Positions 1,421 to 38,152 of a stretch of DNA of 64,000 bases are shown here, piece by piece. The stretch is from a virus (taxonomy: Duplodnaviria > Heunggongvirae > Uroviricota > Caudoviricetes): the IMG/VR virus record IMGVR_UViG_3300043425_000840. One strand, given 5' to 3'. Both the position numbers and the translations under genes were made by a program. The notes under the pieces were generated by a model. It worked only from the letters and a program-made list of their open reading frames with translations. It was not told where the DNA came from and ran no database searches. The number at the start of each line of letters is the position of its first letter. Position 1 is the first letter of the stretch.

Positions 1421-1983
1421 ATTATAACATAAACAATAATTTTTGTGATAGAGGAACCGCTAAAGATATAATTGATTTTTGTCTTGAGTTCGGTGAACCC
1501 TTTTCATATAAACCAACCGAAGTATGGGATTGTAGAAGAATGTACGATTCCAATTTTAAGGAAAGAATTATTAATTTATTAACAAGTAACTACAAAAACG
1601 GAGATTTTAAATTATGGTTTGATTATTCGACATTTAATTTAAAAAATTTCAACATTAGTTTAACATCATACTATGATGGTAGGTATCTTAATCTACATAA
1701 AGATAAGTCAAGTGAATTAACTACAGTTATTGTTCTTTCTGACGATTTTGAAGGGGGTCAATTTGCGTTAACCCAAGACGAGAACCCACCATATAACTTC
1801 GAAACTTTGGGTGGGTTGACTTTATGTGATTTAAAATTGGGTGATAGTATTTCATTCAATGGTTCTGAAACATATCACGGAGTTCTGCCGGTAACTAAGG
1901 GAATAAGATATGCGTTGAATGTTTGGATGACCGAAACAGATTTTGATTATCCGAGAGTTAAAAGTAATAAAACATTGTTATGA
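1417..1983 (+). CDS. 2OG-Fe(II) oxygenase, prolyl-4-hydroxylase (P4H)-like
   Basis: H-x-D in 'LHKDKS', distal His in 'TYHGVLPV', 'GIRYALNVWM' resembling the P4H 'G.RY.L..W' C-terminal motif. Confidence 0.6.
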   Translation: MNYNINNNFCDRGTAKDIIDFCLEFGEPFSYKPTEVWDCRRMYDSNFKERIINLLTSNYKNGDFKLWFDYSTFNLKNFNISLTSYYDGRYLNLHKDKSSELTTVIVLSDDFEGGQFALTQDENPPYNFETLGGLTLCDLKLGDSISFNGSETYHGVLPVTKGIRYALNVWMTETDFDYPRVKSNKTLL

Positions 1984-2477
1984 GTGTACTAATAATCTCC
2001 CTACCAAGAACGGGTTCTACTTCATTGTTACACAAGATAGCGAAAGAGAAGAATTTAAAACCTTTATTTGAACCGTTTGATGGTACTGGTAGAGTTGAGT
2101 ATAATGGTGAAAAGAATGTTGTGGTTAAAACAATAATATGTCATCACAACGATAATATACAACTATCAAAAAACTTTGATGAGGTGATATTGTTAACGAG
2201 AAGAAACGTTAAAGAGTGTGCTGAGTCACACGCCTATCAAACATACTTTTCAAAGATTAAAAATTATGACTCAAACAAACCTTACGTTTATGAAGAGACA
2301 CCTACAGATATTTTTGAACTGTGCCATAACGACATTATGAAATGGAATGAGGAGTTAAATGAATTATCAACTAAACTCAACGTGTCAATAACATACTATG
2401 AGGATATTTTTGATTCGAATAGTGAAGACAGATTAAGAAAAGGTGATAGAGATAAAACAATTAAGAAACTAATTTAA
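1980..2477 (+). CDS. sulfotransferase-like protein (PAPS 5'-PSB-like loop), family member 1
   Basis: 'ISLPRTGSTSL' resembles the 5'-PSB motif (PKxGTT/PRTGST) of sulfotransferases. 'LTRRNVKECAES' resembles the 3'-PB R-x7-S motif. At 165 aa it is short for the fold. Confidence 0.45.
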   Translation: MSVLIISLPRTGSTSLLHKIAKEKNLKPLFEPFDGTGRVEYNGEKNVVVKTIICHHNDNIQLSKNFDEVILLTRRNVKECAESHAYQTYFSKIKNYDSNKPYVYEETPTDIFELCHNDIMKWNEELNELSTKLNVSITYYEDIFDSNSEDRLRKGDRDKTIKKLI

Positions 2478-2480
2478 TAT

Positions 2481-3725
2481 ATGAAAATATTTGTTCATCA
2501 TTATTATACCGATATGTTATTTCAAAAGTTCTTTCATAATGTTAAGAACAAAGAGATGGTTGAAGTGGATAACACAAATGGTGCGATTAGGGATATTACA
2601 TTTGAATACAGAGGAAAGAACTTTGAGGTATCCTTCAATCCTGAAATAAATGATGATGAAGGGATTCATATAATCGATTTCTTTGGTGCACTTAGACAAA
2701 GAGGTCAAGATACAAATTTTGATGGTACCGAACATAGAGGTTCGGATTCTTTTGCGATAATTGAAAGAATGGCAGACCTTATTGAAGATAAAAAGAATTG
2801 GGTAGTATCTTTATTTAGAACTGAAAAAATATTCATCAAGAATGATAATGCAAAAGTAAAGACGGACGGAACAATACAAATTGAGGAAATTGAGAATCAA
2901 ATTCTTAGACTATCAAATCATTTTATATTGACCGATAATGTTTTTACTAATAAGATTGTACTAAGTAAACACCCAAATTTATACAACCCGTTCACTAACA
3001 TCATATTTCAATGGAATGAAATGATTAGTATTAGATGGTTTTATGATTATAAGAATATTAGTGATGCAATCATACCAAAATATAAAATGGGTTATTCAGT
3101 AAGAGCCCACAAACCACTTAGAGTTAAAATTGCTGAGGAATTAACACAAATTGAAGACATCTTTGTTTCTCAAACAAATGTAATTGAAAAGGACTCCGTA
3201 CAGCCAAAGTATAGAAAAATTGAAGGAGCTTACTTAAATGACTACGATTCTGAGATTGATTTTCAGAACTTAAGGATATTAACAAACATAACAGTAGGTC
3301 TTGACTATTTCTTGAGGATTTTACCAATGTCTAAAATTCAAATATGTGATGAGTCTTGGGCACATAATTCCGCTGATTATCACAGTCAATACTTAAGTGA
3401 AAAGTCGTTAGGTTTAATTTTAGCGAACGTTCCTTTCGTTTCTACCCATTCATACCCATACGATTGTATTATGGATTTGGTTGGGATTAGAAAACATCCT
3501 TTTTATGATGAGTCCAAACAATACCAAGGAAACGCAAAACTATTTGCTGATTTTATAAGAACGTTCATTAGTGATTTTGATAACAATTATCAACTATGTA
3601 AGGATTGGATTAAAGAATGTCACGATATTTTCATTAATAGATTACATAAAGAAAATTCAATGTTAGATATGATGGTCAATGGCACAATATCTAACGAACC
3701 CATACCAAAACGACCATTATTATAG
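2481..3725 (+). CDS. hypothetical protein (414 aa)
   Basis: Long ORF in an operon with modification enzymes; no recognisable motif. Confidence 0.5.
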   Translation: MKIFVHHYYTDMLFQKFFHNVKNKEMVEVDNTNGAIRDITFEYRGKNFEVSFNPEINDDEGIHIIDFFGALRQRGQDTNFDGTEHRGSDSFAIIERMADLIEDKKNWVVSLFRTEKIFIKNDNAKVKTDGTIQIEEIENQILRLSNHFILTDNVFTNKIVLSKHPNLYNPFTNIIFQWNEMISIRWFYDYKNISDAIIPKYKMGYSVRAHKPLRVKIAEELTQIEDIFVSQTNVIEKDSVQPKYRKIEGAYLNDYDSEIDFQNLRILTNITVGLDYFLRILPMSKIQICDESWAHNSADYHSQYLSEKSLGLILANVPFVSTHSYPYDCIMDLVGIRKHPFYDESKQYQGNAKLFADFIRTFISDFDNNYQLCKDWIKECHDIFINRLHKENSMLDMMVNGTISNEPIPKRPLL

Positions 3726-4423
3726 TGAGAATAGTATTCACATATCTACCAACCAGACTTAAAGAGATTACTGAAGTTTACTTAAAGTACTCAATTAAAA
3801 GTTTGAATATACAAGGTGAAGTTCCTATAATATATTCCGATATTGATTATTTTAAAAATTTAGACTTAATATATGATTGGGTTGAGTTATCCTTACCCGA
3901 TAGATACCGAAAACCAACAATATGGTCATATCCTAAGTTAAAAGTTCTATCCGAAATTCAATTCCCCTTTATACATTTGGATAATGATTTAGTAGTTGAG
4001 GATATTAAAAAATTATTAGATATCATTAAAAAGGATAAACTAAATTTATGTTACAAACATCCTTTATCGAGTTCACAAATTGAACATTTTACCGAACTAC
4101 ATAAACTATATTCAAATACCTCGTTAGATTATACGGAATTGAATAACACCTCAATAATCGCGTCTTGCAACTTTAGAAATGTGAATAAAGCATATTCCGA
4201 AGTTTTAGATGTTATTGAGTCAAATTACGATTTTTTTAACAAACGTTACCACGGGATACCACCAATAACTTTAAACCAACAATATTTAAATTTATACTTT
4301 GATGATATAAATTACCTATATAAACATAACCCATCGTTTGATGAATTATCAATGAACGGGGTTTGTCACATTGCGGATAAAAATAAAGTTAGTTATTTCA
4401 TTAGAAACAAGAATTTAATATGA
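3725..4423 (+). CDS. hypothetical protein (232 aa)
   Basis: ORF with overlapping start/stop in the operon; no motif recognised. Confidence 0.5.
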   Translation: MRIVFTYLPTRLKEITEVYLKYSIKSLNIQGEVPIIYSDIDYFKNLDLIYDWVELSLPDRYRKPTIWSYPKLKVLSEIQFPFIHLDNDLVVEDIKKLLDIIKKDKLNLCYKHPLSSSQIEHFTELHKLYSNTSLDYTELNNTSIIASCNFRNVNKAYSEVLDVIESNYDFFNKRYHGIPPITLNQQYLNLYFDDINYLYKHNPSFDELSMNGVCHIADKNKVSYFIRNKNLI

Positions 4424-5193
4424 AATCAATGAAGTTTTGGACAAGTTCGGGGTTTGAGGTGGGTAACCATTCTTGGAGATTAGATGAACGTAGAAATAAA
4501 ACATTCAACACATCAGGTTCCGATATTTCCGAAACTAATACCTACACATACAATGAAATGGGGTTCAGGGGGGATTCATTATATAAGGATGGGTTTAGAA
4601 TAATGTCAGTTGGTTGTTCCCATACCGAAGGTGTCGGGGTTAGTGATAACCAAACTTGGCCTCATTATTTCTCAAGACAGATACAGAACGGGGTAGATTT
4701 AAATTTGGGGTTTGGTGGACGTAGTAACGATTACATTGCTAGATGTGTAATCACCCTAACTCAAAAGATAAGACCTAATTTGGTTAACTTAATGTATACC
4801 TATCCATCCCGTAAAGAATACTATCGATACAATGGAGAGTTGGAACCATTTCATATGACTCCTTGGGGTTATTTTAAGGAAGATAATGAAGGGAAGGAGG
4901 AGTATAAATCAATTGCGAGAATTACTCACGATGAGAATGATTTAATCAATTGGTATAAAAATCACCTCCTAATTACAAATTATTTGGAGAATAGGAATAT
5001 CCCATATATATGGAACGGTTCTTTCTTAATGGATAACGAATATTCTGACAAATACCGGTTTGACGGTGACTACGGAGATTTTCGTGAATTCTCTATCGAT
5101 GGTAAACACGCAACCCCAAAACACAACGAAGAATACTCCAAAAAACTACTTCAGTTTGTAAAATCCAATTTTCCCGATTATTTACCTAAATAA
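4420..5193 (+). CDS. SGNH-like hydrolase paralogue (Cys in nucleophile position)
   Basis: 'MSVGCSHTEGVG' (G-C-S-H-T in place of GDSxT), 'GFGGRSNDYIA', C-terminal 'IDGKHATP' (D-x-x-H). Confidence 0.5.
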   Translation: MKSMKFWTSSGFEVGNHSWRLDERRNKTFNTSGSDISETNTYTYNEMGFRGDSLYKDGFRIMSVGCSHTEGVGVSDNQTWPHYFSRQIQNGVDLNLGFGGRSNDYIARCVITLTQKIRPNLVNLMYTYPSRKEYYRYNGELEPFHMTPWGYFKEDNEGKEEYKSIARITHDENDLINWYKNHLLITNYLENRNIPYIWNGSFLMDNEYSDKYRFDGDYGDFREFSIDGKHATPKHNEEYSKKLLQFVKSNFPDYLPK

Positions 5194-5247
5194 ACGGAAG
5201 TCATAACCGACAAACAAAGTATTTATCTAAGTATAATAACATATTAG

Positions 5248-8200
5248 ATGAATATATTTGACGCACACATATCGGGTTCCCTGTCGGTATCCTCTTCAGC
5301 GGAAATACAGGGAGACTTAACGGTACTTGGAATAATTAATGCAACCATTAGTGGTAACACCACAAGTGCGGATACCGCATCGTTTGCACCAAAATATACC
5401 CTAACCTCAAGTTTTAATACTTTTACCAGTAGCACTAATTTAATGTTTGCAGGATTAAATCCCGTATTAAGCTCCATTCAAACATCAACCAGCTCGTTAA
5501 ACACATTCACATCAAGTGCAAACGGTAGATTAACTTCAATTGAGGGTGTTACTGGTTCTATATCCTCATTAAACACATATACAGGAAGTAACGATACTAT
5601 AATTGGTACATTACAAACATCAACCTCAAGTTTAAACACATTCACATCAAGTGCTGATGGTAGATTAACCGCGTTGGAAACGTCAACCGGTTCAATAAAC
5701 ACTTATACATCATCTAATACAACTAACATTAATGCCATTCATACCGCAACTGCGAGTTTGAATACATACACCGGAAGTAACGATACTATAATTGGTACAT
5801 TACAAACATCAACAGGGAGTTTGAACACTTATACAAGTTCAAACACAACTAATATTAATGCTATTCACACTGCAACCGCAAGTTTGAATTCATTTTCTTC
5901 AAGTGCGGACGGTAGATTAACATCTATTGAGGGGGTAACGGGTTCAATTGCGGCGTTGAATACTTACACAGGCTCAAACAATACCGCAATCAATTCATTA
6001 AATTCTTATACAAGTAGTAACACTACAAATATTAATGCAATTCATACTGCAACAAGTAGTTTAAATTCATATACAAGTTCTAACACAACAAACATAGATG
6101 CAATTCACACCGCAACGAGTAGTTTGAATAGTTTCACAAGCAGTGCTTCAGGTAGATTAACCGCATTAGAAACTGCATCAAGTAGTTTAAATTCTTATAC
6201 GAGTAGTAACACAACAGCAATTACCGCCTTGAACACATCTACAAGTTCGTTGAACTCATTCACAACATCATTTAACACTGCATTTGGTTTAAGTGGTGCA
6301 AACGTTACCGTTAAAGGTAATTTAACCGTACAAGGTTCCACAACTCAAGTCGATTCAACAACTGTTAATATTGGAGATAACATTATCCAATTAAATGGTA
6401 CGGGAGCAACTAATGCGGGTATTGTTGTAAGAGACGCTACATCACCAACATTCACTTCAGGTTCATTCCTTTGGGACTCAACAAACGATAAATGGGTTGC
6501 GGGTCCATTAGGTTCTGAAGACGAAGTTGTATTAAAGACAGCATCACAAGCATTAACAAACAAAACAATTAGTGGAGGTTCTAACACATTAACAAATATC
6601 GGTAACGCTTCACTTACAAATAGTTCAATCACAATTGCGGGTACGAGTACATCATTAGGTGGTTCAATAACTGCAGCAACAATATTAACATCAACAGGTG
6701 TTTGGTCAGGTTCGGCTCAGTTACCTGCAGGAGTTGTAAGTGGTTCCGCTCAGGTAATTGCTAGTTTACCCGCAGGTACGGTGTCAGGGTCTTCTCAAGT
6801 ACTTGCGGGAACAACAATACATTCAGGTGCATTCTTTAATGGTATAAGTGTTGTTTCAGGTTCTGCACAAATTTCTTTTAACGGAATTACCGATAAACCT
6901 ACGTTAGTTTCAGGTTCTTCCCAAGTATTAAATGGAAGTGGAGTTTGGTCAGGTTCCGCTCAATTACCTTCGGGTGTTGTGTCAGGTAGTTCACAAGTAT
7001 CTTACACAGGACTATCAAATATACCATCCGGTATTGTATCAGGTTCTTCACAGATTACTTTCTTAAGTATTAGTAGTATACCGAGTGGTTTAGTATCAGG
7101 GTCTTCCCAAGTATTAGCAGGTACCGGTATTTGGTCGGGTTCCGCTCAATTACCATCAGGTGTGGTATCGGGTAGTTCACAAGTACTTGCGGGAACAACA
7201 ATACACTCAGGAGCATTCTTTAACGGAATTTCTGTAGTATCGGGTTCAGGTCAAATATCATTTAACGGAATAACTGATAAACCGACTTTAGTTTCGGGTT
7301 CTTCTCAAATAACGTACGGTTCATTAAGTGGAATACCTTCAGGTATCGTATCAGGCTCATCACAAATATCATTTGGCAGTATTAGTGGAGTACCGTCGGG
7401 ACTTATCTCAGGTTCATCACAAGTAACATATGGTTCATTAAGTGGAATACCTTCAGGTATTGTGTCCGGTTCTTCTCAAATATCATTTGGTTCAATATCA
7501 GGAGTTCCGTCAGGTTTGGTATCAGGTTCGGCACAATTAACATCAACTTTTGTACAGAAAGTAGGAGACACAATGACAGGTGACCTTAGATTTAACAATA
7601 GTGGATATGGTAGAATAGCATTTACTGACAATTATCACGGAATGATTCTTAGAGGTAGTCCAAATAATGCAACAGGAGATATCACCGCCGGTGATGTGAC
7701 ATCCTTAGTCCAACATAGTGGAGACTTTAGATTTTATAGAACAAACGGTACTATAAATGAAATTTATTTCCAAGTAAATGCAACAGCTCCTTATTGGAGA
7801 GGGAATACTATATATCACGCGGGTAATATACCTACGTGGAATCAAAATACCACAGGAACTGCGAGTAACATTACATCATACACAATTAACCAAAACTTAG
7901 GTACAGGTAACTCACCATCATTCTCAAGTGTTTCGGCGACATCAATGGCGGCAACTTCTACCGCAGATGCTACTGGGTTATCACTTAGAAGTACCTCAGA
8001 AGTTTTAAGTGGTGAAGGGTGGTGTACCGCATTATATTGTTATAATAACAATGATGGTTTCTTAGTTGTAGGTAGAGATGCTAGTGCAAATGCACGACCT
8101 GTTTTTCACGTGGGTGGTTTTAACAACGCAGGCTATGGGGGATGGAGTGATGGAGATTCGATGATTACTTTAGTTAGAATGGATGGAACTAAATCTACAG

Positions 8201-8637
8201 GGAGTACATATGCTTATAAAGGTTTATCAAGTTCATCGTATTATTCCAACATTGTAAAAACAACATCAAGAACAGAGTTTAAAGATTCACAAGGGGCACA
8301 TTATTTCAATGGTACATTAACAACTGGTGGTAATATGACAGTTGGTGGTACGTTAACAGAAAACTCATCAATCCGATATAAGAAAGATATTGAAACGATT
8401 AGTTATGGTTTGGATAAAGTTTTACAATTAAGGGGTGTTACCTACGTTAAAAAAGAGAATAACGTTAAAGAAATGGGTGTTATTGCTGAAGAAATTGCCG
8501 AAATTTTACCTGATGTGGTACTTTACGATTCAGAAGGTAAAGTAGATTCCGTATCTTATGGTAGAATTACTGCGGTATTAATCGAGGCGATAAAAGATTT
8601 GAAAAAAGAAATAAACGAATTAAAGAATAATGGCTAA
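5248..8637 (+). CDS. tail fiber protein with C-terminal intramolecular chaperone (peptidase S74) domain
   Basis: 1129 aa. Ser/Thr-rich ~21-aa tandem repeats (SLNTYTSSNTTNINAIHTATAS...) and a second '(L/I)PSGVVSGSSQV' repeat block. The C-terminus 'IRYKKDIETISYGLDKVLQLRGVTYVKK...GVIAEEIAEILPDVV...ITAVLIEAIKDLKKEINELK' matches the auto-cleaving chaperone domain of tail fibers and endosialidases. Confidence 0.8.
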   Translation: MNIFDAHISGSLSVSSSAEIQGDLTVLGIINATISGNTTSADTASFAPKYTLTSSFNTFTSSTNLMFAGLNPVLSSIQTSTSSLNTFTSSANGRLTSIEGVTGSISSLNTYTGSNDTIIGTLQTSTSSLNTFTSSADGRLTALETSTGSINTYTSSNTTNINAIHTATASLNTYTGSNDTIIGTLQTSTGSLNTYTSSNTTNINAIHTATASLNSFSSSADGRLTSIEGVTGSIAALNTYTGSNNTAINSLNSYTSSNTTNINAIHTATSSLNSYTSSNTTNIDAIHTATSSLNSFTSSASGRLTALETASSSLNSYTSSNTTAITALNTSTSSLNSFTTSFNTAFGLSGANVTVKGNLTVQGSTTQVDSTTVNIGDNIIQLNGTGATNAGIVVRDATSPTFTSGSFLWDSTNDKWVAGPLGSEDEVVLKTASQALTNKTISGGSNTLTNIGNASLTNSSITIAGTSTSLGGSITAATILTSTGVWSGSAQLPAGVVSGSAQVIASLPAGTVSGSSQVLAGTTIHSGAFFNGISVVSGSAQISFNGITDKPTLVSGSSQVLNGSGVWSGSAQLPSGVVSGSSQVSYTGLSNIPSGIVSGSSQITFLSISSIPSGLVSGSSQVLAGTGIWSGSAQLPSGVVSGSSQVLAGTTIHSGAFFNGISVVSGSGQISFNGITDKPTLVSGSSQITYGSLSGIPSGIVSGSSQISFGSISGVPSGLISGSSQVTYGSLSGIPSGIVSGSSQISFGSISGVPSGLVSGSAQLTSTFVQKVGDTMTGDLRFNNSGYGRIAFTDNYHGMILRGSPNNATGDITAGDVTSLVQHSGDFRFYRTNGTINEIYFQVNATAPYWRGNTIYHAGNIPTWNQNTTGTASNITSYTINQNLGTGNSPSFSSVSATSMAATSTADATGLSLRSTSEVLSGEGWCTALYCYNNNDGFLVVGRDASANARPVFHVGGFNNAGYGGWSDGDSMITLVRMDGTKSTGSTYAYKGLSSSSYYSNIVKTTSRTEFKDSQGAHYFNGTLTTGGNMTVGGTLTENSSIRYKKDIETISYGLDKVLQLRGVTYVKKENNVKEMGVIAEEIAEILPDVVLYDSEGKVDSVSYGRITAVLIEAIKDLKKEINELKNNG

Positions 8638-9058
8638 TTTTTTAGCAAATACGAGACCAGCACCTGGCGTTCAGTTGGGATTTTTTAGAGATAGGTATTA
8701 TGGTGGAAACAATTATTTTCACTATAAAACAAATATCAATATGGCTAACATTATGTGTACCATTGAGGCTGTAGGTTATGCGTATGGTGCGAATCAAGCC
8801 ATCAGAGCCGCTTGGAGTTTTTACGCTTACGCCGCCAGTAACTCAACAATCAGTATTGGAACATCTAATGCTTATGGTGGTCTAAGTGCTCACGGAGTTT
8901 ACACATCATCAGATGGATATGTGGTTATAAGAGCTAACTGTGCATCGTATTATAGTGGGTGGATTCTTAATGCGTATTGTTTAAATCCAACAGGATATAA
9001 TTTTGAAGTTAGTATACTTGCTAGCGTTCAAACAGATAATGCGGGAAATTACTATTAA
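8630..9058 (+). CDS. tail-fiber-adjacent small protein, paralogue A (142 aa)
   Basis: Shares 'IEAVGY.YG...IR.AW.FY.Y', 'AHGVY..SDGY.VI.A' and a C-terminal 'NYY' with the next two ORFs. Confidence 0.55.
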   Translation: MANFLANTRPAPGVQLGFFRDRYYGGNNYFHYKTNINMANIMCTIEAVGYAYGANQAIRAAWSFYAYAASNSTISIGTSNAYGGLSAHGVYTSSDGYVVIRANCASYYSGWILNAYCLNPTGYNFEVSILASVQTDNAGNYY

Positions 9059-9495
9059 TGGCAAATTTACAAGGAACGGGGATATATCCTGAAGGAGGTT
9101 ATTTACAACAACTTGGTATATATAATGTTGCCAACTTATCATCTGGTGGTGGTCAATATTATCATATGAAATTGAATATTACCCATCAATCATACCAAAT
9201 GATAATGATTGAGGCTGTTGGATATAATTATGGAACATCCGCACCAATTAGATGTGCTTGGAATTTTTATACCTACACAAATTTTTTTGGTAACGTTCAA
9301 ACTACCGCATATGATGGGATGACAGCACATAGTCACTACGTTGCTGGTGACAATAAAATTGTTATTGTAGGGTATGCTAGTAGTTTATATTATTGTGGGT
9401 TTACGTTAAATGCGTACAATACCGCAGGAAATGGTTATGGAACCATAACATCCGTAGTATCTGCGGTTCAAACATCAGCAGCAACGTATTATTAA
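9058..9495 (+). CDS. tail-fiber-adjacent small protein, paralogue B (145 aa)
   Basis: 'IEAVGYNYGTSAPIRCAWNFYTY', '...GFTLNAYNT...', ends 'TYY'; tandem with A and C. Confidence 0.55.
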   Translation: MANLQGTGIYPEGGYLQQLGIYNVANLSSGGGQYYHMKLNITHQSYQMIMIEAVGYNYGTSAPIRCAWNFYTYTNFFGNVQTTAYDGMTAHSHYVAGDNKIVIVGYASSLYYCGFTLNAYNTAGNGYGTITSVVSAVQTSAATYY

Positions 9496-9498
9496 ACT

Positions 9499-9984
9499 AT
9501 GGCAATATTAACACCACCATTTAGAATAGGTTCAGTAAGTAGTTGGTACTTTCAACAAAAGCACATCTATAATTATAATACCACCGCAGGTAGTCCATTG
9601 TATATTCATATGAAGACTAGCTTAATTGGTGCAACTACGTATAATATGTGGATGTTTGAAGCGGTTGGATACAACTATGGTACCGCAGCACCTATTAGAT
9701 GTTCTTGGGGTTTTCACATAAGCACCGCAGGTATGCCATATACGAACGGATTTCTTTATAACATAGGTTTAAGAAACATATATCCAGGTATGTCCGCACA
9801 CGGAGTTTATATAGCATCTGATGGATATATCGTATTGAGAGCATATGCAAGTAGTAATTATTATAATGGATTTACATTAAACGCATACGCAACTAGAAGT
9901 GATGTGACACAATCAAACGTAAGTATAATTGCCTCAGTCCAAACAAGTGATGGAGGTAACTATTACGGAGGACCAGTACAATAA
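9499..9984 (+). CDS. tail-fiber-adjacent small protein, paralogue C (161 aa)
   Basis: 'FEAVGYNYGTAAPIRCSWGFHIS', 'AHGVYIASDGYIVLRAYASSNYYNGFTLNAY', '...GGNYY'. Confidence 0.55.
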   Translation: MAILTPPFRIGSVSSWYFQQKHIYNYNTTAGSPLYIHMKTSLIGATTYNMWMFEAVGYNYGTAAPIRCSWGFHISTAGMPYTNGFLYNIGLRNIYPGMSAHGVYIASDGYIVLRAYASSNYYNGFTLNAYATRSDVTQSNVSIIASVQTSDGGNYYGGPVQ

Positions 9985-9996
9985 AATTAAAAATAT

Positions 9997-10368
9997 ATGA
10001 GAAGATTTATTGACAATTTAGGAGTATTTCATTTATTACTCGACGGAGAAACTCCACAAGAAACTTGGACGGAGGTTATTGACCAATACAAAAGGTATAA
10101 AGCACCGAATGGTGATGTGCATACAATATTATTTGATGCGGAACCTGAAGAAGATTGGGTAGAAGATAACATTGAATATATGCCGTACCCTGACCCTTCA
10201 TATGTTCCACCATACGGAGCATTAAGAAAAATGAACTACCCTGATTTGGGAGAACAATTAGATATGTTATGGCACGAAATAAATGAAAATGGTTCAATAT
10301 CATCTTCGGGACAATGGTTTCAATCCATTAGTGATGTTAAAACTCAATTCCCTAAGGATGAGGAATAA
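9997..10368 (+). CDS. hypothetical acidic protein (123 aa)
   Basis: ORF; D/E-rich; its position after the fiber genes is compatible with an assembly/chaperone role (inference). Confidence 0.45.
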   Translation: MRRFIDNLGVFHLLLDGETPQETWTEVIDQYKRYKAPNGDVHTILFDAEPEEDWVEDNIEYMPYPDPSYVPPYGALRKMNYPDLGEQLDMLWHEINENGSISSSGQWFQSISDVKTQFPKDEE

Positions 10369-10370
10369 CA

Positions 10371-10399
10371 TTGACATTTGTGAAAATTTTTAGTATAAT
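10371..10399 (+). promoter_or_regulatory. sigma70-consensus promoter (TTGACA-17-TATAAT) upstream of 10406
   Basis: 'ttgacatttgtgaaaatttttagtataat' is an exact -35 and -10 with a 17-nt spacer. The ATG follows 6 nt after the -10, so the transcript would be near-leaderless. Confidence 0.4.
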
Positions 10400-10405
10400 T
10401 AATTT

Positions 10406-10873
10406 ATGGAAAAGATATCATTAAAATTAAAAGACGTTCTTCAATTAGAGAGTGAGATTAATGGACTCACAAATCCAGAAACGGGTGAAAAATATTATGA
10501 AGGATTTATAAATCAAAAATTATCAATCATCTTAAAATATGATTTAACTGAAACTACAAAATTTTTAGAAAGTGAAAGAAAAAAAGTAGATAACTTAAGA
10601 GATGAATTAGTAACCAAATATGGTAAGATGGACAATAATGGTAGAATTGTTGTCAATATGCACATTTTCGAAAAAGATGAAAATGGTGTTATCATCTCTA
10701 AAAAATTGAATCCTGACTATGTCGAATTTGAAAAGGAATACACTCAATTATTGGATAAAGAGATTGATGTAGAATATCCCGAAATCACGAAAGAGGATTT
10801 AGTAAATGCGGGAAAAACAAAAGACAATTATATAGTTTTATTCAGACTAATAAAAAATAAGGAGGTTATTTAA
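10406..10873 (+). CDS. hypothetical protein (155 aa)
   Basis: ORF downstream of a consensus promoter; K/E-rich. Confidence 0.5.
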   Translation: MEKISLKLKDVLQLESEINGLTNPETGEKYYEGFINQKLSIILKYDLTETTKFLESERKKVDNLRDELVTKYGKMDNNGRIVVNMHIFEKDENGVIISKKLNPDYVEFEKEYTQLLDKEIDVEYPEITKEDLVNAGKTKDNYIVLFRLIKNKEVI

Positions 10874-10890
10874 CCTCCTTTCTTATTTCT
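10859..10890. terminator. bidirectional stem-loop terminator at a convergent gene junction
   Basis: 'aaggaggtt attt aacctcctt' is a 9-bp perfect inverted repeat with T-rich flanks on both strands, between the + gene ending at 10873 and the - gene ending at 10866. Confidence 0.5.
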
Positions 10891-11978
10891 ATCATCATAT
10901 TACCAATTTGATATTCACCCACCTCATAATAAGGTATTGATAACCTTAATTTATGTAAAGTCATTATGTCCATATCATCGAATGGTGCAGTTTCATAAAT
11001 CATCACGTCTACGTTATCTGTGAACGTAAATTTTGACCTTAAATCATAACGGGTATTCTTCTGTTCATTTTCAATATAATCCTCAGGAATCGTCCCTATT
11101 TCGATTTTATCGAAGAACGGTTCAATCTCCATAAAACGATTTCTATTATTGGTTGTTAATCCCATTGTGAAAGTCTTATACTTAAAGTTTTTATCCTCCC
11201 AATATCTAAGTTCATTGAATGCTGAGAATGGTATACCCCACTTTCTAACAAAGTTTCTATTAGACGATACTTCGATGATTCTTCTATCAACCCTCATATC
11301 ATCACTGAATCTTGAAGTCTGCGAAACAAAATGATAAACAATTGCCGAATCACAAGTTTTTAGTTCGTAACCTTTTAGTTTCGCACGGACTAAGAAATCA
11401 TCATCCTCACAGAAACACGGAACGAAACTAAACCCATCAAAACCACCCACATCATCAAACATCTTTTTAGTTCCACTCATAAAGAATACCGCACCATCAT
11501 ATAAGTTCTTACTGTCCTTCCATTGATTTACATAACTGTTGAAATGGAAGTAATCGAAGTCATCGAAACCGGAACCTAAATTCAATAATACTTTACCTGG
11601 TCTTAAATGACCTTTGAATATTGGTGGTTCTATTGTTGTGTAACATATTAATGTATTTGGATTTTCATCCAACAAGGTTTCTAAGTTCTCAAGAAAGTGT
11701 TCACCTAAAATCATATCGTTATGAATCAACACTAATTTATCTGTATCAACCAACTTGATTCCTGCGTTATATGTGTCTGAGAATGTTATCCTATCATCAT
11801 CGTGTATGAATGATAAGTAGTCATCATTCAACGACTCTAACCACTCCTTTGTTCCGTCACTTGAACCACCACTACTAATTACAAATGGTGCTTCAGGATA
11901 TAACAAACGAACTCTTTCATAACATTTTTTTGTTAGGTCTAATTTATTGTAGACCGCCATTACTAAAGATATACTCAT
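10866..11978 (-). CDS. glycosyltransferase (GT2-like N-terminus)
   Basis: 'MSISLVMAVYNKLDLTKKCYERV' resembles the GT2 'hhhVYN' start. It lies in the minus-strand glycosylation island. Confidence 0.55.
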   Translation of the reverse strand: MSISLVMAVYNKLDLTKKCYERVRLLYPEAPFVISSGGSSDGTKEWLESLNDDYLSFIHDDDRITFSDTYNAGIKLVDTDKLVLIHNDMILGEHFLENLETLLDENPNTLICYTTIEPPIFKGHLRPGKVLLNLGSGFDDFDYFHFNSYVNQWKDSKNLYDGAVFFMSGTKKMFDDVGGFDGFSFVPCFCEDDDFLVRAKLKGYELKTCDSAIVYHFVSQTSRFSDDMRVDRRIIEVSSNRNFVRKWGIPFSAFNELRYWEDKNFKYKTFTMGLTTNNRNRFMEIEPFFDKIEIGTIPEDYIENEQKNTRYDLRSKFTFTDNVDVMIYETAPFDDMDIMTLHKLRLSIPYYEVGEYQIGNMMIEIRKEVK

Positions 11979-12598
11979 TTCATTCTACTTATTTTAGTTG
12001 ACCAAAGAACACCATCTTCTCTAATCACAGGGTTAAATTCGGATTTCAATACCGTTTTTGATATATGTCCACCCATTTTCCAATTCAACATTTGATACGC
12101 TTGTTTAGGGCCTTTGTGAATTAAAAAATTATCACCATACCATACTTTTAATTCTTCGGGAATGGGTCGATACGAATTTTTATGTATAAAAAACAAACAA
12201 GCAAATCCACCAATCAATTGATAAATTGGGGTTAATAAAAATCTACCCTTAGGTTCCGTCCAACATCCATCACCTAATCCAATAATACCTTTATCTTCAG
12301 TTATACTATCGTGAATTTTATCAAGTAAAGACCAATCGGTTGTTATGTCATCATTAAGAAACATTAACTTATCTTCCTTAGCCATTGAGTATCCTTTATT
12401 CCAAGCAGGATTTACATAAGTATTCTTCCCTTCTTTAACATATACCAATTTTGGTATATCTTCTTTTATGTGAATCTCATCATCATTTGTGTTATCAATC
12501 AAAATCAATTCACTAACTAAAGGATGTGAAGTAACTTCTTTAATTAATTCAACAACACCATCTGGCACGAACATTGTCGGCATTATTACACTTATCAT
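11975..12598 (-). CDS. glycosyltransferase-like protein (GT2-like)
   Basis: 'MISVIMPTMF...ELILIDNTNDDE' resembles the GT2 N-terminus and acidic motif. Start overlaps the upstream stop. Confidence 0.5.
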   Translation of the reverse strand: MISVIMPTMFVPDGVVELIKEVTSHPLVSELILIDNTNDDEIHIKEDIPKLVYVKEGKNTYVNPAWNKGYSMAKEDKLMFLNDDITTDWSLLDKIHDSITEDKGIIGLGDGCWTEPKGRFLLTPIYQLIGGFACLFFIHKNSYRPIPEELKVWYGDNFLIHKGPKQAYQMLNWKMGGHISKTVLKSEFNPVIREDGVLWSTKISRMK

Positions 12599-12601
12599 AT
12601 A

Positions 12602-13600
12602 TTATTTTTTATTTTTCCAAAATGAATAAATTCCTTTATCTAACTCATAGAACGGCCAAACAAATCTTTCCCTTATCGGTTGTTGTTTTGCCCAATCCCA
12701 CATCTTTGTTAGTCCTTCCTTCAAATCCGTTTTAAATTCAAAATCTAATAGGTCTATTGATTTTTGCCAAGTAGGTATCGAATGTTTAACTTCGTGTCTT
12801 TGTTCATAATATTGAACAGAACCACCACCGACAACTTCTCTCAATATCTCATTGGCTTCATTAATTGAATATTCTTTAATACCACCAAGATTAATAATTT
12901 GTTTACTTGCTCTATTGTCTTGAGACGCTTTCCATAATGGTTCAAGACTATCATCAATGTAACTAAACGCTCTTGTTTGAGTACCATCACCAAAGATTGT
13001 CATTGGTTCACCAATCATATGTTGATACATCCAAATACCTAAAACGTTTCTGTACTTGTCCCATATGTTTTGTTTAACTCCAAATACATTGTGAGGTCGA
13101 ATGATACACCAATCTAATCCGTGTTGTTCACCGGCAATTTGAATATCCATTTCACAACCATACTTAGCGACACCATACGGGTCAATAGGTTTAGGTACTT
13201 GAACCTCATCAAACATATTACCGTCTTGGTGACCGTACACTGCCAATGTTGATGTAAACACTAAACGTTTAACATCGTGTTTAATACATTGGGTAATAAT
13301 TCTTGATGTTGCAACCAAATTGTTTTGGTAGTTGTAAGTTCTGATGAATGGTGATAACCCTTCTGCAGCATATGCTGCAAAGTGATAAACATAATCAAAC
13401 TTATGAACCTCGAAACAATTTTCAATTGGATGTTCCACCAAATTCATTTGCCAAAACTCAACCTTTGGGTTTACGTTTTCTTTGTAACCACCGCTCAAGT
13501 CATCCATACCAACGATATGTACATCTGGATGATTTTCAGCAATGTAGTCCGCTAACCTTGACCCTAATAATCCTGCTACTCCTGTAATTAATATCTTCAT
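12602..13600 (-). CDS. NAD-dependent sugar-nucleotide epimerase/dehydratase (extended SDR)
   Basis: 'MKILITGVAGLLGSRLADYI' (TGxxGxxG Rossmann motif) and the 'YGVAKYGCE' YxxxK catalytic motif. Confidence 0.8.
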   Translation of the reverse strand: MKILITGVAGLLGSRLADYIAENHPDVHIVGMDDLSGGYKENVNPKVEFWQMNLVEHPIENCFEVHKFDYVYHFAAYAAEGLSPFIRTYNYQNNLVATSRIITQCIKHDVKRLVFTSTLAVYGHQDGNMFDEVQVPKPIDPYGVAKYGCEMDIQIAGEQHGLDWCIIRPHNVFGVKQNIWDKYRNVLGIWMYQHMIGEPMTIFGDGTQTRAFSYIDDSLEPLWKASQDNRASKQIINLGGIKEYSINEANEILREVVGGGSVQYYEQRHEVKHSIPTWQKSIDLLDFEFKTDLKEGLTKMWDWAKQQPIRERFVWPFYELDKGIYSFWKNKK

Positions 13601-13601
13601 T

Positions 13602-14222: not shown

Positions 14223-14225
14223 ATT

Positions 14226-14444
14226 TTATGCTCTTTGATTATATCCTCCGTTTATTCTTCTTGTTAGTTGATTCACAATGTCGTTATCGATTTCACGAGA
14301 AATCTGTTCAGAAAGTGCTCTTGATAATTCTGATACAATATCAGTATAATTGACACCTGTCTCTAATATTTCTGGTCTCCAATCTACACGTAACACTCTT
14401 GCCTTTTTAGAAATACCTCTAAAAAATTTAAATTCACTAATCAT
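14226..14444 (-). CDS. small protein with N-terminal FKFF motif (72 aa)
   Basis: Starts 'MISEFKFFRG', basic C-terminus; member of the FKFF-motif set. Confidence 0.5.
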   Translation of the reverse strand: MISEFKFFRGISKKARVLRVDWRPEILETGVNYTDIVSELSRALSEQISREIDNDIVNQLTRRINGGYNQRA

Positions 14445-15947: not shown

Positions 15948-15948
15948 A

Positions 15949-17304: not shown

Positions 17305-17307
17305 TAA

Positions 17308-17505
17308 TTAAAACTTTGAACCACTGGATGCTAATCCATTATGATTGTCAATCTTGTCTTTGAAATCTTCGCTTTTTGTATATAAATCTAAAGACCTATT
17401 CACTAGTTTTTGTAGGTTAATTGAGCCGTCAATTGATTTAATTTTGAATTTTTTATAAACATCATCTAAAATGTTCACACTGGTTAATTTAACTTCAGCT
17501 TTCAT
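17308..17505 (-). CDS. hypothetical small protein (65 aa)
   Basis: ORF at the end of the minus-strand island. Confidence 0.4.
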   Translation of the reverse strand: MKAEVKLTSVNILDDVYKKFKIKSIDGSINLQKLVNRSLDLYTKSEDFKDKIDNHNGLASSGSKF

Positions 17506-27727: not shown

Positions 27728-28681
27728 ATGAAATACCTATCTGTTTGCAGTGGAATCGAAGCGGCTACCGTAGCTTGGTCACCACTTGGTTGGGAATGTA
27801 AAGGTGTATGTGACTTTGCAAAGTTCCCACAACAAGTTCTATCACATCACTACCCAAACACACCTTTATTTACTGACATTACTAAACTCAACACAAATGA
27901 AACGTACAAAAAAACAAAATTCGACTTATTGGTCGGAGGAACGCCTTGTCAATCTTTTTCCGATGCAGGACTCAACAAAGGAATGGATGATATCCGTGGT
28001 CAAATCGCCCTTAGCTATGGACAAATTCTTAAAGAAAAACGACCTAAGTGGTTCATTTGGGAAAATGTCGAAGGCGTTTTTAAAAGTCAACACAAAAAAG
28101 CCTTATGTCAAATCATCACCTCTTTCACAGGAGTTGACTTCAGACCTGAACACATCGAAAAACAAGGGGTTGTCCAAGGGGAAAATTACTCAATCGCTTA
28201 TAGGGTTTTCGACTCGCAATACTTCGGAGTTCCCCAACGACGCAAAAGAATCTATATTGTCGGATATCGTGGAAAAGACTGGAGAGTCCCATTCTCAGTA
28301 TTATTTGAAGAAGGATGTTTTGAAAGCGTTGAAGAAAAGAATAAACTCAAGAGGGATGAGTACACCAAAAATATTCTCGGACAAATTAAACTCGCTGGTA
28401 CGGTAACCAAATCCTACGCAAGAACATTGGTTGATGGGTTTGGTAAAGTATCTACCTCAAACTATTGGGTAGATGATAATGGTATCAGAACATTTACTGA
28501 AAGAGAACTAGAAAGATTACAAGGGTTTCCCGATGGTTATTTAGATTTTGAAATCAACGGAAAAAAACCTTCATATTCAAACGTGAAAGGTGCTGTGGGT
28601 AATTCAATGACAGTTAATGTTATGTATTGGATTGGTCAAAGAATAAATTTTATTCACAATTATTTGGAATCTTCAAAATAA
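27728..28681 (+). CDS. dcm: DNA (cytosine-5)-methyltransferase
   Basis: Motif I 'LSVCSGIEAATVAW', motif IV 'GGTPCQSFSDAG', motif VI 'FIWENVEGV', motif VIII 'QRRKRIYIVG'. Confidence 0.85.
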   Translation: MKYLSVCSGIEAATVAWSPLGWECKGVCDFAKFPQQVLSHHYPNTPLFTDITKLNTNETYKKTKFDLLVGGTPCQSFSDAGLNKGMDDIRGQIALSYGQILKEKRPKWFIWENVEGVFKSQHKKALCQIITSFTGVDFRPEHIEKQGVVQGENYSIAYRVFDSQYFGVPQRRKRIYIVGYRGKDWRVPFSVLFEEGCFESVEEKNKLKRDEYTKNILGQIKLAGTVTKSYARTLVDGFGKVSTSNYWVDDNGIRTFTERELERLQGFPDGYLDFEINGKKPSYSNVKGAVGNSMTVNVMYWIGQRINFIHNYLESSK

Positions 28682-36721: not shown

Positions 36722-36907
36722 TTGAATATTATGAAAAATACAAGTAAATTCCTTAAAGTACTCTTAGTGATGGCATCACCCGGATTGTTCATCATTTTTT
36801 ACCCAAAAATCAATACGGATTTTGGATTGTTGATTTTTTTTGTTATATTTTTTACATCTGTTATTCACACCTTTAATTTCATAAAAAATGATTTACGTAT
36901 CAATTGA
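36722..36907 (+). CDS. small membrane protein
   Basis: Hydrophobic 61-aa ORF; a TAnnTTTG motif lies at 36706-36713. Confidence 0.35.
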   Translation: MNIMKNTSKFLKVLLVMASPGLFIIFYPKINTDFGLLIFFVIFFTSVIHTFNFIKNDLRIN

Positions 36908-37553
36908 TATTGAGACATCCGGTCTTGACCACGAGAAACACAAAGTATTATCCATCGGTGCCATCATCGAAGATACTGAAAACAAATTACCGTACGAAGA
37001 TTGTCCTAAGTTCAATGCAGTTGTTCTTCAGAATGAAATCGTTGGTTCACCGAGAGCACTTACAATGAATAAGGAACTTATCTCTATGATTGGTGACTAC
37101 CTTGAAGGTGATGATGAGACCAAACAAAACCTCGACACCCATAGTGGTTATAGTTTCTATAAAGAAGATGATGTCGTTAAAGAATTCTATTGGTGGTTAG
37201 AAAGGAATGGATATTTCCAAGGAAGTAATAGTGGAGGATATGTTCAAATGGGTGGTGGATATCTTAAACCTGTAATTAATGGAGCAACTAAACCAATCAC
37301 ATTGAATGTTGCAGGTAAAAACTTCGGAACATTCGATAAACTATTCCTACAAGAACTTCCTTGGTGGCAAAAGTTAATTCGTACACGTCAAAGAGTATTG
37401 GACCCTGCAATCTTAATGGTTGATTGGGTGAACGATAAGTCATTACCAAATTTAACAACTTGTAAAGAACGTGCTGGGGTTAAGGGTATTGTTACACATA
37501 ACGCATTGGAAGATGCTTGGGATGTGATTGAAGTATTGAGAAAGTTTTATTAA
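36888..37553 (+). CDS. DEDD-family 3'-5' exonuclease (DnaQ-like)
   Basis: Exo I 'VSIDIETSGLD' and Exo III 'HNALEDAWDVIEVL'. Confidence 0.75.
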   Translation: MIYVSIDIETSGLDHEKHKVLSIGAIIEDTENKLPYEDCPKFNAVVLQNEIVGSPRALTMNKELISMIGDYLEGDDETKQNLDTHSGYSFYKEDDVVKEFYWWLERNGYFQGSNSGGYVQMGGGYLKPVINGATKPITLNVAGKNFGTFDKLFLQELPWWQKLIRTRQRVLDPAILMVDWVNDKSLPNLTTCKERAGVKGIVTHNALEDAWDVIEVLRKFY

Positions 37554-37555
37554 TA

Positions 37556-38152
37556 ATGATATTAAAGAGGTATTGGTATAGTGGAGGATTTAATATTACG
37601 GCACCATTAAAATGTGGTACTCGATGGTTAGCTGACTATACAGAACCTTTAGGATTTTCAAAGTACGAATCACATTATGAACTTAGTAAATTGTATATTG
37701 GTAAAGATAAAATAAACTATTTTCTTTATAGAGAACCAAGTGAACATTTCATAACCGCTTTACATACTGAAGTCCTAACATATGCTAGAGAAAAGAATTT
37801 AGAATCATTAAATTTAAAACCGATAGTTGATAGATTTAAAATAAATTATGGAGAACATTGGTCATTAAATTTATGGGAAAAATTGTACGAAGACATACCA
37901 AATATGGAGAGAAATTTTGATTTTGTTAATTTGAAAAACTTGTCAAAATTATTCAACAATAAGTTTCCACATAAAAAAGAAGAGTATGATTTTTTAAATA
38001 ATAAATTACACTTAACAAAACCAGAATTATTAATTAAACTTAAAAAAGAATATCCAAATGAGTGGATATATTTTAATGAGATAATAAAAAAAGAAACAGT
38101 TATTATGAATAAAGTAATATACCAATCAAAAAAAATGAATTATGGGTTGTGA
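37556..38152 (+). CDS. sulfotransferase-like protein, family member 3 (divergent)
   Basis: 'ITAPLKCGTRWLADYTEP' resembles the PKxGTTWL 5'-PSB motif. 'YFLYREPSEHF' aligns with the 'LLTRRNVKE' region of member 1. Confidence 0.35.
   Translation: MILKRYWYSGGFNITAPLKCGTRWLADYTEPLGFSKYESHYELSKLYIGKDKINYFLYREPSEHFITALHTEVLTYAREKNLESLNLKPIVDRFKINYGEHWSLNLWEKLYEDIPNMERNFDFVNLKNLSKLFNNKFPHKKEEYDFLNNKLHLTKPELLIKLKKEYPNEWIYFNEIIKKETVIMNKVIYQSKKMNYGL

Follow-up and report, generated by a model that had tools for sequence, protein, structure and literature searches.

Three small genes with a shared N-terminal loop

The window (the whole 64,000-nucleotide stretch that was analysed) belongs to a very large uncultured phage, and proteins identical to those of the window are found on a 324-kb contig. 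Three ORFs of its plus strand are considered here: member 1 (1980-2477, 165 amino acids), member 2 (20425-20913, 162 amino acids) and member 3 (37556-38152, 198 amino acids). Their coordinates are exactly those of the initial annotation. They are genuine genes, each under purifying selection (dN/dS of 0.07-0.19 for all three). Their products are labelled 'hypothetical' in every source consulted. Tblastn of the three proteins against 50,697 phage records gives no match, none of them reaches the gathering score of the curated sulfotransferase HMMs of Pfam or NCBIfam, and the NCBIfam search returns no hit for any of the three.

Each product carries the N-terminal loop initially described, which reads LPRTGSTSL in member 1, IPNSGTSSL in member 2 and APLKCGTRWL in member 3. 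The pattern is confined to these proteins among 117 non-overlapping ORFs of the window. Three or more hits occur in none of 500 composition-preserving shuffles (mean 0.05), a test that is biased because the pattern was set after the three members had been seen. The ORFs, the loop and the homology of members 1 and 2 hold, but the proposed 'three-member paralogue family' does not: the genes form two families unrelated at the sequence level.

Members 1 and 2

Members 1 and 2 are homologous (BLASTP E 3e-9, 27% identity): their profiles retrieve each other at E 1e-10 to 1e-12, and the hhalign probability is 98.8% (E 1e-16). The EPF, VKT and FD.VI blocks noted in the initial annotation are confirmed; like a YYED block, they show little or no variation over the two families. 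Exact invariants over the two families are P9, G12, E31, K50, R74, Y140 and E141, with R10 and S83 nearly so.

Member 1 is a minimal sulfotransferase-like protein of family A1/A4. A high-confidence structure model places its PRTGST segment between strand 2-7 and helix 13-24, so that the 5'-phosphosulfate-binding motif P-[KR]-x-G-[ST]-[ST] lies in a strand-loop-helix, as it also does in member 3; in the families of both proteins it is invariant. The R-x7-S motif reported earlier is present as R75-x7-S83; the invariant arginine, however, is R74, which makes the conserved element R-x8-S. R74/R75 and S83 lie on strand 68-73 and helix 77-93 of the model, the arrangement of a 3'-phosphate-binding motif. 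We propose P9-R10-T11-G12-S13-T14, E31, K50, R74 and S83 as the PAPS-site residues. The R10-E31 spacing of 21 equals that of Arg78 and Glu99 in human TPST2, whose catalytic residues are Arg78, Glu99 and Lys158 (PMC10951654). The catalytic histidine at the position of the SULT K-T-H motif is absent, and compared with characterised enzymes member 1 is missing the greater part of the acceptor-binding and cap regions.

Member 1 scores 13.0 and 13.7 bits with Pfam sulfotransferase models, against cutoffs of 22 and 27, and Sulfotransfer_3 is matched by 6 of 27 sequences of its family. PDB sequence searches with the member-1 family profile and with a merged profile retrieve no sulfotransferase. By structure, sulfotransferases are the top match, Stf0 being the best, with longer alignments and higher identity than kinases, which follow closely. 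The best explanation is that member 1, and ancestrally member 2, are of the TPST/Stf0/NodH-like type, with a P-R-[ST]-G-[ST]-[ST] loop in a strand-loop-helix.

Member 2 is a shortened paralogue. Its loop, PNSGTS, has Asn in place of the basic residue, which is R or K in its relatives, and about 24 amino acids bearing the 3'-phosphate-binding Ser helix, present in longer relatives, are deleted, leaving the window's copy without that motif. E33, K50 and the YYED block are kept. Pfam gives no sulfotransferase hit for the window's protein, while among 21 sequences of its family Sulfotransfer_1 is matched by 15 (best E 5.5e-6), Sulfotransfer_3 by 14 and Sulfotransfer_4 by 9. The family profile also aligns with SULT1B1 (E 0.009) over the 3'-phosphate-binding and YYED/IIHH blocks. 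Activity of member 2 is doubtful because both the basic loop residue and the 3'-phosphate-binding Ser are lost. The window's copy is probably impaired or repurposed, yet still under selection (dN/dS 0.067).

Member 3

Member 3 represents a separate sulfotransferase-like family of 157 clusters. BLASTP against members 1 and 2 gives E values of at least 0.6, and hhalign probabilities are 0.2-1.2% even with a 128-sequence profile. Its FDFVNLKNL segment had been wrongly aligned to FDEVILLTRR of member 1; the true strand-Arg/helix-Ser element is INYFLYREPSEHFITA, at residues 53-68. The motifs of the protein are A16-P-L-K19-C-G21-T22-R23-W-L, Y58-R59-E-P-x-E-H64-x-x-T67 and H101-W102, with H64 and H101 conserved, and those of the family are P-x-K-C-G-[TS]-R-[WYF] and [VIY]-R-[DEN]-P-x-E-H-x-x-[ST]. 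Conservation over 128 clusters is 90% or more for each of K19, G21, R23, R59, S/T67 and H101. In the AF2 model (pLDDT 88.3) PLKCGTR lies between strand 12-17 and helix 22-28, and R59-x7-T67 on strand 53-58 and helix 61-79, again as a 3'-phosphate-binding motif.

Foldseek against the PDB gives sulfotransferases as 15 of the best 15 hits, all weak (E 0.03-0.3, TM 0.27-0.37). Pfam reports no sulfotransferase hit for member 3 itself; Sulfotransfer_1 is the sole recurrent Pfam family among its relatives (6 of 26 and 6 of 128). The family profile matches an amine sulfotransferase at the YRxP..H..S block, with no significant PDB sequence hit. Member 3 has a dN/dS of 0.18-0.19, and its neighbours in the window are nuclease and SPFH genes.

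Gene neighbourhood

Immediately upstream of member 1, a plus-strand gene (1417-1983) codes for a P4H-like 2OG-Fe(II) oxygenase (PF13640, Pfam E 2.8e-8) and overlaps the start of member 1 by 4 nt. Its single PDB hit is prolyl 3-hydroxylase 1 (E 0.011). In 64 of 71 loci such an oxygenase gene is the direct upstream neighbour of the member-1 homologue. The same gene block includes an SGNH-like/DUF6071 protein (599-1420, plus strand; DUF6071 E 4.5e-6), one of eight SGNH-like copies in the window, the number given in the initial annotation. Downstream, again on the plus strand, follow a 414-aa protein (2481-3725) with no hit in Pfam, NCBIfam or PDB, whose homologue occupies this position in 38 of 69 loci, then a 232-aa DUF6734-like and a 257-aa SGNH-like protein (3725-5193), and a repeat-containing, Ser/Thr-rich tail fibre of 1129 aa (5248-8637), whose C-terminal domain is a Peptidase_S74 chaperone (Pfam E 1.2e-12). 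We infer this tail fibre to be a candidate target of modification. Carbamoyltransferase, halogenase-like, SGNH-like and glycosyltransferase genes complete this tailoring island.

An APS-kinase gene (L001:1792-2226) lies outside the window, some 6 kb before its start and hence beyond the sequence that the initial annotation saw. Its product scores 62.1 bits with Pfam APS_kinase (cutoff 21.1), its PDB hits, 21 in all, are without exception APS kinases (best E 1.2e-10), and its Walker A, DGD..R, NIRR-like and ISPY-like motifs align with theirs, which identifies it as an APS kinase; at 144 aa it is short and misses the curated NCBIfam cutoffs (68 versus 127). The exact protein shares a 122.6-kb contig with exact members 2 and 3. 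In related viral contigs, 23 loci have a full flank, and 17 of these carry an APS-kinase homologue on the same strand, 5.2-9.7 kb before the member-1 gene. No ATP sulfurylase motif was found in the DNA retrieved for the analysis. Both sulfotransferase-like families lie within a few kb of each other in the divergent contigs L022, L023 (adjacent), L027, L028 and L098.

Further into the window, a minus-strand glycan-synthesis block (10866-17304) holds three GT2 genes, one NAD-dependent epimerase/dehydratase gene and two GT4 genes; of the six glycosyltransferases and two epimerases initially counted, five and one are retained. Just downstream of member 2 an SGNH/GDSL-like protein is encoded (21097-21741, plus strand; Lipase_GDSL_2 E 0.0097) with visible GDS, G, N and DxH blocks, and its homologues adjoin family members in L007, L022 and L023.

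Predicted activity and alternative readings

The sulfotransferase-like reading made initially is borne out for the family of members 1 and 2 and less strongly so for member 3, given the motifs, the Pfam matches of relatives, the fold searches and the lack of a Walker A motif. Gene context adds the weightiest new evidence: the linked APS-kinase gene of the phage supports the reading strongly and independently. The interpretation built on it is supported in part. We lean towards the view that the window encodes two distinct families of unusually small sulfotransferase-fold proteins, and the phage probably sulfates some molecule. Since member 1 is translationally coupled to the P4H-like oxygenase, 'hydroxylate, then O-sulfate' is the most likely logic.

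In the mechanism that we propose, the phage APS kinase would turn host-made APS into PAPS, which the 5'-phosphosulfate loop of the small enzymes would bind through R10 of member 1 or K19 of member 3. The 3'-phosphate would be held by the strand-Arg/helix-Ser element (R74/S83 in member 1, R59/T67 in member 3), and in-line transfer would bring the sulfo group to an acceptor hydroxyl. In member 1, the invariant E31 may act as general base and K50 as leaving-group stabiliser. As acceptor, within the tailoring island, we envisage a protein or peptide, for which the neighbouring tail fibre is one possibility, or else a small molecule or a glycan. A bolder version, which we regard as quite improbable, has a self-contained phage hydroxylate-then-sulfate system (P4H-like dioxygenase, the smallest known sulfotransferases and its own APS kinase) decorating the phage's own Ser/Thr-rich tail fibres or a host receptor with sulfate esters, and diversifying rapidly by gene shuffling in the tail-fibre island.

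A confident placement among P-loop kinases had been named beforehand as the outcome that would speak against sulfotransferases; it did not occur, though kinases are close runners-up by fold. That we are dealing with P-loop-fold kinases of small size, acting on nucleotides or small molecules, or with NTP-binding proteins, is very improbable: no member shows a Walker A GxxxxGK[ST], G-K-[ST] being missing from SLPRTGST, GIPNSGTS and APLKCGTR and the Lys position being Ser/Thr in members 1 and 2; sulfotransferases lead the structural hits with more residues aligned and higher identity; the recurrent Pfam families are sulfotransferases, with matches that reach beyond the loop into the C-terminal half; and the linked APS-kinase gene supplies the maker of the sulfotransferase co-substrate. 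More serious, if still doubtful, is the idea that one or more members keep the fold and are catalytically dead, serving as PAP(S)-binding or structural/regulatory proteins. It applies especially to the window's member 2, with its Asn loop residue and missing 24-aa segment, and draws on the loss of most TPST2 activity upon mutation of Arg78 (PMC10951654) and on the acceptor-binding regions that member 1 lacks; the strong purifying selection on member 2, the E33, K50 and YYED block that it retains and the invariance of every predicted donor-site residue in member 1 argue otherwise. For member 3, it is unlikely that the loop resemblance is convergent and the function lies elsewhere. The failure of sequence and profile comparisons to connect it with members 1 or 2, the absence of significant Pfam or PDB sequence hits, Foldseek values no better than E 0.03 and TM 0.37, a location outside the tailoring island and a homologue once named 'predicted lipase' by JGI are consistent with such convergence, but the Foldseek hits are almost purely sulfotransferases, the six conserved residues fall at the expected 5'-phosphosulfate- and 3'-phosphate-binding positions and secondary structure, and other phages again have the gene beside APS kinase and genes of the member-1 type.

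The initial annotation took the substrate to be a sulfated glycan. In that scheme the three enzymes would sulfate a glycan built by the glycosyltransferase/epimerase block and edited by SGNH esterases, giving a sulfated, acetylated polysaccharide on host or virion. The five glycosyltransferases with their epimerase and the eight SGNH-like paralogues, some adjoining family members, fit it, as do the member-1 and full-length member-2 homologues of L007, which lie next to a tail fibre and a gene block containing GT4/methyltransferase and GT9, and the sugar substrate of Stf0, the best structural match. A NodU-like carbamoyltransferase and a GT25 lie upstream, and together with the APS kinase they recall Nod-factor-type sugar decoration. 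We nevertheless hold the scheme to be rather unlikely, for the tightest, overlapping partner of member 1 is the 2OG oxygenase and not a glycosyltransferase, the glycosyltransferase block is on the other strand 8 kb away, no glycosyltransferase was noted in the annotation of other member-1 loci, such as L005, an SGNH neighbour occurs only now and then (in 7 of 79 loci and in 6 of 21), and the window's member 3 sits among nuclease and SPFH genes. The suggested link to marine Flavobacteriia polysaccharides is not supported; its one basis is a thymidylate synthase 62.7% identical to that of a Flavobacterium phage. Gene context favours hydroxylate-then-sulfate tailoring over the glycan scheme.

Relation to known systems

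The closest known proteins are Stf0 (mycobacterial trehalose 2-sulfotransferase, PDB 1TEX) and the TPST/NodH-type 'PR[ST]G[ST]T' enzymes (Sulfotransfer_3, PF13469). These are about 240-370 aa long, whereas member 1 has 165 aa, 13% identity and a score below the Pfam cutoff, and is without most acceptor-binding and dimerisation elements. Compared with cytosolic sulfotransferases (Sulfotransfer_1, PF00685; SULT1B1, SULT7A1), the window copies have no His after K-T and score below threshold, and they lack the first 40 aa as well as the C-terminal cap. Unlike P-loop nucleotide and shikimate kinases, they have no Walker A Lys or Ser/Thr pattern, and their conserved residues fit a sulfotransferase donor site.

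Neighbourhoods that hydroxylate and then sulfate were predicted by Iyer, Abhiman, de Souza and Aravind (2010; PMC2938197), with genes for a dioxygenase, a sulfotransferase, a PAPS synthetase and tail-collar proteins. The present locus resembles them in its 2OG-Fe(II) dioxygenases, tryptophan-halogenase-like enzymes, sulfotransferase, PAPS-making capacity and fibre protein. Those neighbourhoods are in bacterial genomes, with larger sulfotransferases, full PAPS synthetases and tail-collar or collagen-like proteins; ours is phage-borne, with an APS kinase only and two novel minimal sulfotransferase-like families.

If active, these proteins would be the smallest sulfotransferases known (165-198 aa), defining a minimal PAPS-using core, and very large phages would own a sulfation module made of an APS kinase, two kinds of sulfotransferase and coupled dioxygenases. 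Lying in a fast-evolving island by tail-fibre genes, the module could affect host range or immune evasion. Were tail-fibre decoration true, it would be the first case of sulfation of a bacteriophage virion protein, along with a minimal sulfotransferase catalytic core. A validated annotation would spread widely through viral metagenomes because the three proteins and several hundred relatives are now 'hypothetical' in the databases consulted.

The statement that phage sulfotransferases are rare was too strong, as both phages and viral metagenome contigs already have genes annotated as such: OM43-phage-related metagenomic viral genomes encode PF13469 proteins similar to one of Synechococcus phage S-SRM01, and glacier-ice viral contigs also carry sulfotransferase genes (PMC10580990, PMC8290583). 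Like those genes, some of them from marine waters, the window's are sulfotransferase-like genes of phages or viral contigs; unlike them, found by standard Pfam annotation, the window's three are 'hypothetical' and much smaller. Judged by sequence, the three genes are unannotated, unusually small variants of previously known phage sulfotransferase genes.

Three ORFs and two families

Three plus-strand ORFs of the window encode short proteins: member 1 (positions 1980-2477, 165 aa), member 2 (20425-20913, 162 aa) and member 3 (37556-38152, 198 aa). Their coordinates agree exactly with the initial annotation, as does the N-terminal loop described there, which reads LPRTGSTSL in member 1, IPNSGTSSL in member 2 and APLKCGTRWL in member 3. 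This loop pattern is limited to the three proteins among 117 non-overlapping ORFs of the window, and three hits were obtained in 0 of 500 shuffles, for a pattern that was defined post hoc. All three genes are packed tightly against their neighbors, the start of member 1 overlapping the upstream gene by 4 nt. They are conserved across many metagenomic contigs and are under purifying selection, with dN/dS values of 0.09-0.13 (member 1), 0.067 (member 2), and 0.18-0.19 (member 3).

Members 1 and 2 are homologous (BLASTP E-value 3e-9; hhalign probability 98.8%, E-value 1e-16) and their family profiles detect each other with E-values of 1e-10 to 1e-12. Residues P9, G12, E31, P32, K50, D67, R74, W122, Y140, and E141 are invariant in both families, while R10, S83, F33, and Y139 are nearly so. 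The single family of three paralogues proposed initially holds for this pair and does not extend detectably to member 3. BLASTP of member 3 against members 1 and 2 found no relationship, and hhalign gave a probability of 0.2-1.2% even with a 128-sequence family profile and relaxed settings. Member 3 founds a separate family of 157 clusters at 50% identity, with the motifs P-x-K-C-G-[TS]-R-[WYF]-L and [VIY]-R-[DEN]-P-x-E-H-x-x-[ST] and an H-W pair. The earlier pairing of FDFVNL in member 3 with FDEVILLTRR in member 1 is incorrect; in member 3, the stretch that truly corresponds to the strand-Arg/helix-Ser element is YFLYREPSEHFITA. A profile search found no additional members of either family in the window.

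Similarity to sulfotransferases

Scans of the three window proteins against Pfam, PHROGs, and NCBIfam gave nothing above threshold. Member 1 scores 13 bits with Pfam family Sulfotransfer_1 (cutoff 22) and 13.7 bits with Sulfotransfer_3 (cutoff 27), and members 2 and 3 have no Pfam sulfotransferase match in the direct scan. Among 21 relatives of member 2, 15 match Sulfotransfer_1 (best E-value 5.5e-6), 14 Sulfotransfer_3, and 9 Sulfotransfer_4. The profile of this family aligns human SULT1B1 (E-value 0.009) over the 3'-phosphate-binding block and the YYED...IIHH region. Sulfotransfer_3 is matched by 6/27 relatives of member 1, and Sulfotransfer_1 is the sole recurrent Pfam family among those of member 3 (6/26 and 6/128 sequences), whose profile touches an amine sulfotransferase at the YRxP..H..S block (E-value 0.23). 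PDB searches with member 1, its family profile, and a merged profile retrieved no sulfotransferase; those with the member 2 and member 3 profiles gave weak hits only. As wholes, the member 1/2 and member 3 families both point to sulfotransferases.

AlphaFold2 models of members 1 and 3 (pLDDT 90.6 and 88.3) place the loop in a strand-loop-helix and an Arg...Ser/Thr pair in a strand-helix element. This is the arrangement described for the 5'-phosphosulfate-binding and 3'-phosphate-binding (3'-PB) motifs of all sulfotransferases (PMC10951654). The loop arginine of member 1 is like that of Sulfotransfer_3/TPST-type enzymes. Its spacing of 21 residues to the invariant E31 equals that between Arg78 and Glu99, which are catalytic in human TPST2 together with Lys158 (PMC10951654). 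The three window proteins fail formal sulfotransferase HMM membership and their fold match is not exclusive to sulfotransferases. We infer that they probably descend from PAPS-dependent sulfotransferases and work like them, a function that is entirely deduced.

Member 2 is a reduced copy. Its longer relatives have 181-187 aa, compared to 162 aa in the window. In the window protein and its closest kin, Asn replaces the loop Arg/Lys of the longer relatives and about 24 residues directly after IRRKPT are missing, a segment that in those relatives supplies the 3'-PB motif with its conserved Ser and its helix. Its catalytic competence is thus doubtful from the sequence; strong purifying selection nevertheless acts on it despite the loss of these elements.

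Genes linked to the sulfotransferase-like families

Of the new evidence, gene context is the most informative. The window sequence continues upstream in an identical contig (loci L001/L116), which codes for a CysC-like APS kinase of 144 aa (L001:1792-2226 = L116:7920-8354), located ~6 kb before the window start and ~8 kb before member 1. The protein, named adenylylsulfate kinase by JGI, scores 62 bits with Pfam APS_kinase (cutoff 21) and lies below the NCBIfam cutoffs. All its PDB sequence hits (21/21, best E-value 1.2e-10) are APS kinases, and the alignments match the DGD..R, NI..R-like, and SPY motifs. Cellular APS kinases are longer than this protein. The exact protein shares a 122.6-kb contig with exact copies of members 2 and 3. 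Among the 80 IMG/VR loci recovered with the member 1 family (43-95% identity), 23 have a complete 10-kb upstream flank, and 17 of these carry an APS kinase homologue 5.2-9.7 kb upstream of the member 1 gene on the same strand. PAPS has few known uses, namely by sulfotransferases and by the assimilatory PAPS reductase. Conservation of a dedicated phage APS kinase near the member 1 gene thus makes a PAPS-using function likely. A motif search of all DNA fetched, which is a limited test, revealed no ATP sulfurylase or PP-loop (CysD/CysH) signatures, so that the host would have to supply APS.

The gene directly upstream of member 1 (1417-1983) codes for a P4H-like 2OG-Fe(II) oxygenase whose sole PDB hit is prolyl 3-hydroxylase 1 (E-value 0.011). 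Of 71 loci that could be assessed, 64 have a homologue directly before the member 1 gene, in the same orientation and at most 60 nt away. Immediately downstream, 38/69 loci encode a homologue of a 414-aa protein of unknown function, with no PDB sequence match.

Genes of the member 1/2 and member 3 families, though unrelated in sequence, lie within a few kb of each other in several divergent contigs (L022, L027, L028/L029, L038, L048, L059, L066, L098, L104, and L023, where the genes are adjacent). In L028/L029 an APS kinase gene is found 1.2 kb upstream of the member 3-type gene. Locus L007, from a relative, has homologues of member 1 and of full-length member 2 spaced by 2 kb; a tail fiber, glycosyltransferases, and methyltransferases are encoded next to them. 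In L038:5933-8262, L039, and L048, whose member 1 proteins are 94% identical to that of the window, a member 3-family gene follows member 1 at a distance of 1.2 kb. The distance is 35 kb in the window, pointing to rapid gene shuffling in the island.

Predicted reaction and acceptor

The overlapping P4H-like oxygenase suggests that hydroxylation would create the acceptor hydroxyl, which would then be sulfated. The same gene logic was predicted by Iyer et al. (2010) for bacterial neighborhoods of dioxygenase, sulfotransferase, and PAPS synthetase, including tail-collar/collagen-like proteins; they also recorded cyanophage arrays of dioxygenases and halogenases (PMC2938197). The island upstream of the window (L116:943-7895 and L116:8351-14580) is densely packed with tailoring functions: it encodes a NodU/CmcH-type carbamoyltransferase, GT25, DUF6734, DUF2061, a tryptophan-halogenase-like flavoprotein, and three additional 2OG-Fe(II) oxygenases.

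A protein acceptor could be the adjacent tail fiber (5248-8637, 1129 aa), although this is speculation. It carries a C-terminal endosialidase-chaperone (Peptidase_S74) domain and long Ser/Thr-rich periodic repeats (SLNTYTSSNTTNI..., VSGSSQV...); a test for collagen-like repeats was negative. Related islands encode proteins of 500-650 aa that also contain modules homologous to its C-terminal part.

The acceptor could possibly be a glycan, as initially proposed. The carbamoyltransferase, the glycosyltransferases, and a resemblance to Stf0 speak for it. A minus-strand block of the window contains three GT2, one epimerase, and two GT4 genes, which accounts for five of the six glycosyltransferases and one of the two epimerases announced; the others were not found in the window. 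The glycan is, however, less well backed by conserved linkage than hydroxylation followed by sulfation, and SGNH-like genes are adjacent only occasionally. The eight SGNH/GDSL-like paralogues counted initially are indeed present (599-1420, 4420-5193, 17724-18551, 21097-21741, and the tandem 47958-48710, 48703-49449, 49446-50051, and 50051-50746), with weak Pfam support (Lipase_GDSL_2, E-value 0.0097; DUF6071, E-value 4.5e-6). Several have G-C-S in place of G-D-S in block I, and 49446-50051 lacks this block. They are not constant neighbors of the sulfotransferase-like genes, with adjacency at only 7/79 and 6/21 loci.

Sulfotransferase genes of unknown role were already annotated in phage and viral metagenome studies (PMC10580990, PMC8290583), and the kind is thus known. 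What is new are two families of very small proteins that lack annotation, being called 'hypothetical' by every source, and that have so far turned up on viral contigs alone. Their conserved association with a 2OG oxygenase and with an APS kinase of the phage is new as well, as is the naturally reduced paralogue, member 2.

Source phage and host

Among 50,697 deposited phage genomes, none is closely related to the window: neither tblastn with each of the three members nor megablast of positions 1-20000 gave a match in these records, which hold no annotated relative. Pattern-based scans of GTDB genomes for both families, a limited test, detected no homologue in cellular organisms. Phage hallmarks of the window are the Peptidase_S74 tail fiber, a T4-type RNA ligase, an NlpC/P60 peptidase, DNA methyltransferases, and a thymidylate synthase. 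Cluster look-up places exact copies of window proteins on two contigs, 324,478 bp and 122,566 bp long, and IMG/VR viral contigs with relatives reach 334 kb, indicating a jumbo-class phage with a very large genome as the source. A related IMG/VR contig bears the label of a giant-virus MAG (GVMAG), probably owing to a binning artefact.

The thymidylate synthase (22093-23229) has its best match, at 62.7% identity, in Flavobacterium phage vB_FspM_immuto, which is the sole hint to the host. At 378 aa it covers the whole 266-position Pfam profile and has ~110 extra residues. DNA methyltransferases of N6/N4 and C5-cytosine type are encoded in the same region (18553-19254 and 27728-28681), suggesting DNA modification. 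An unusual fusion of 431 aa (61804-63099) combines PHROG matches to endonuclease VII, HNH, and Lar-like restriction alleviation proteins.
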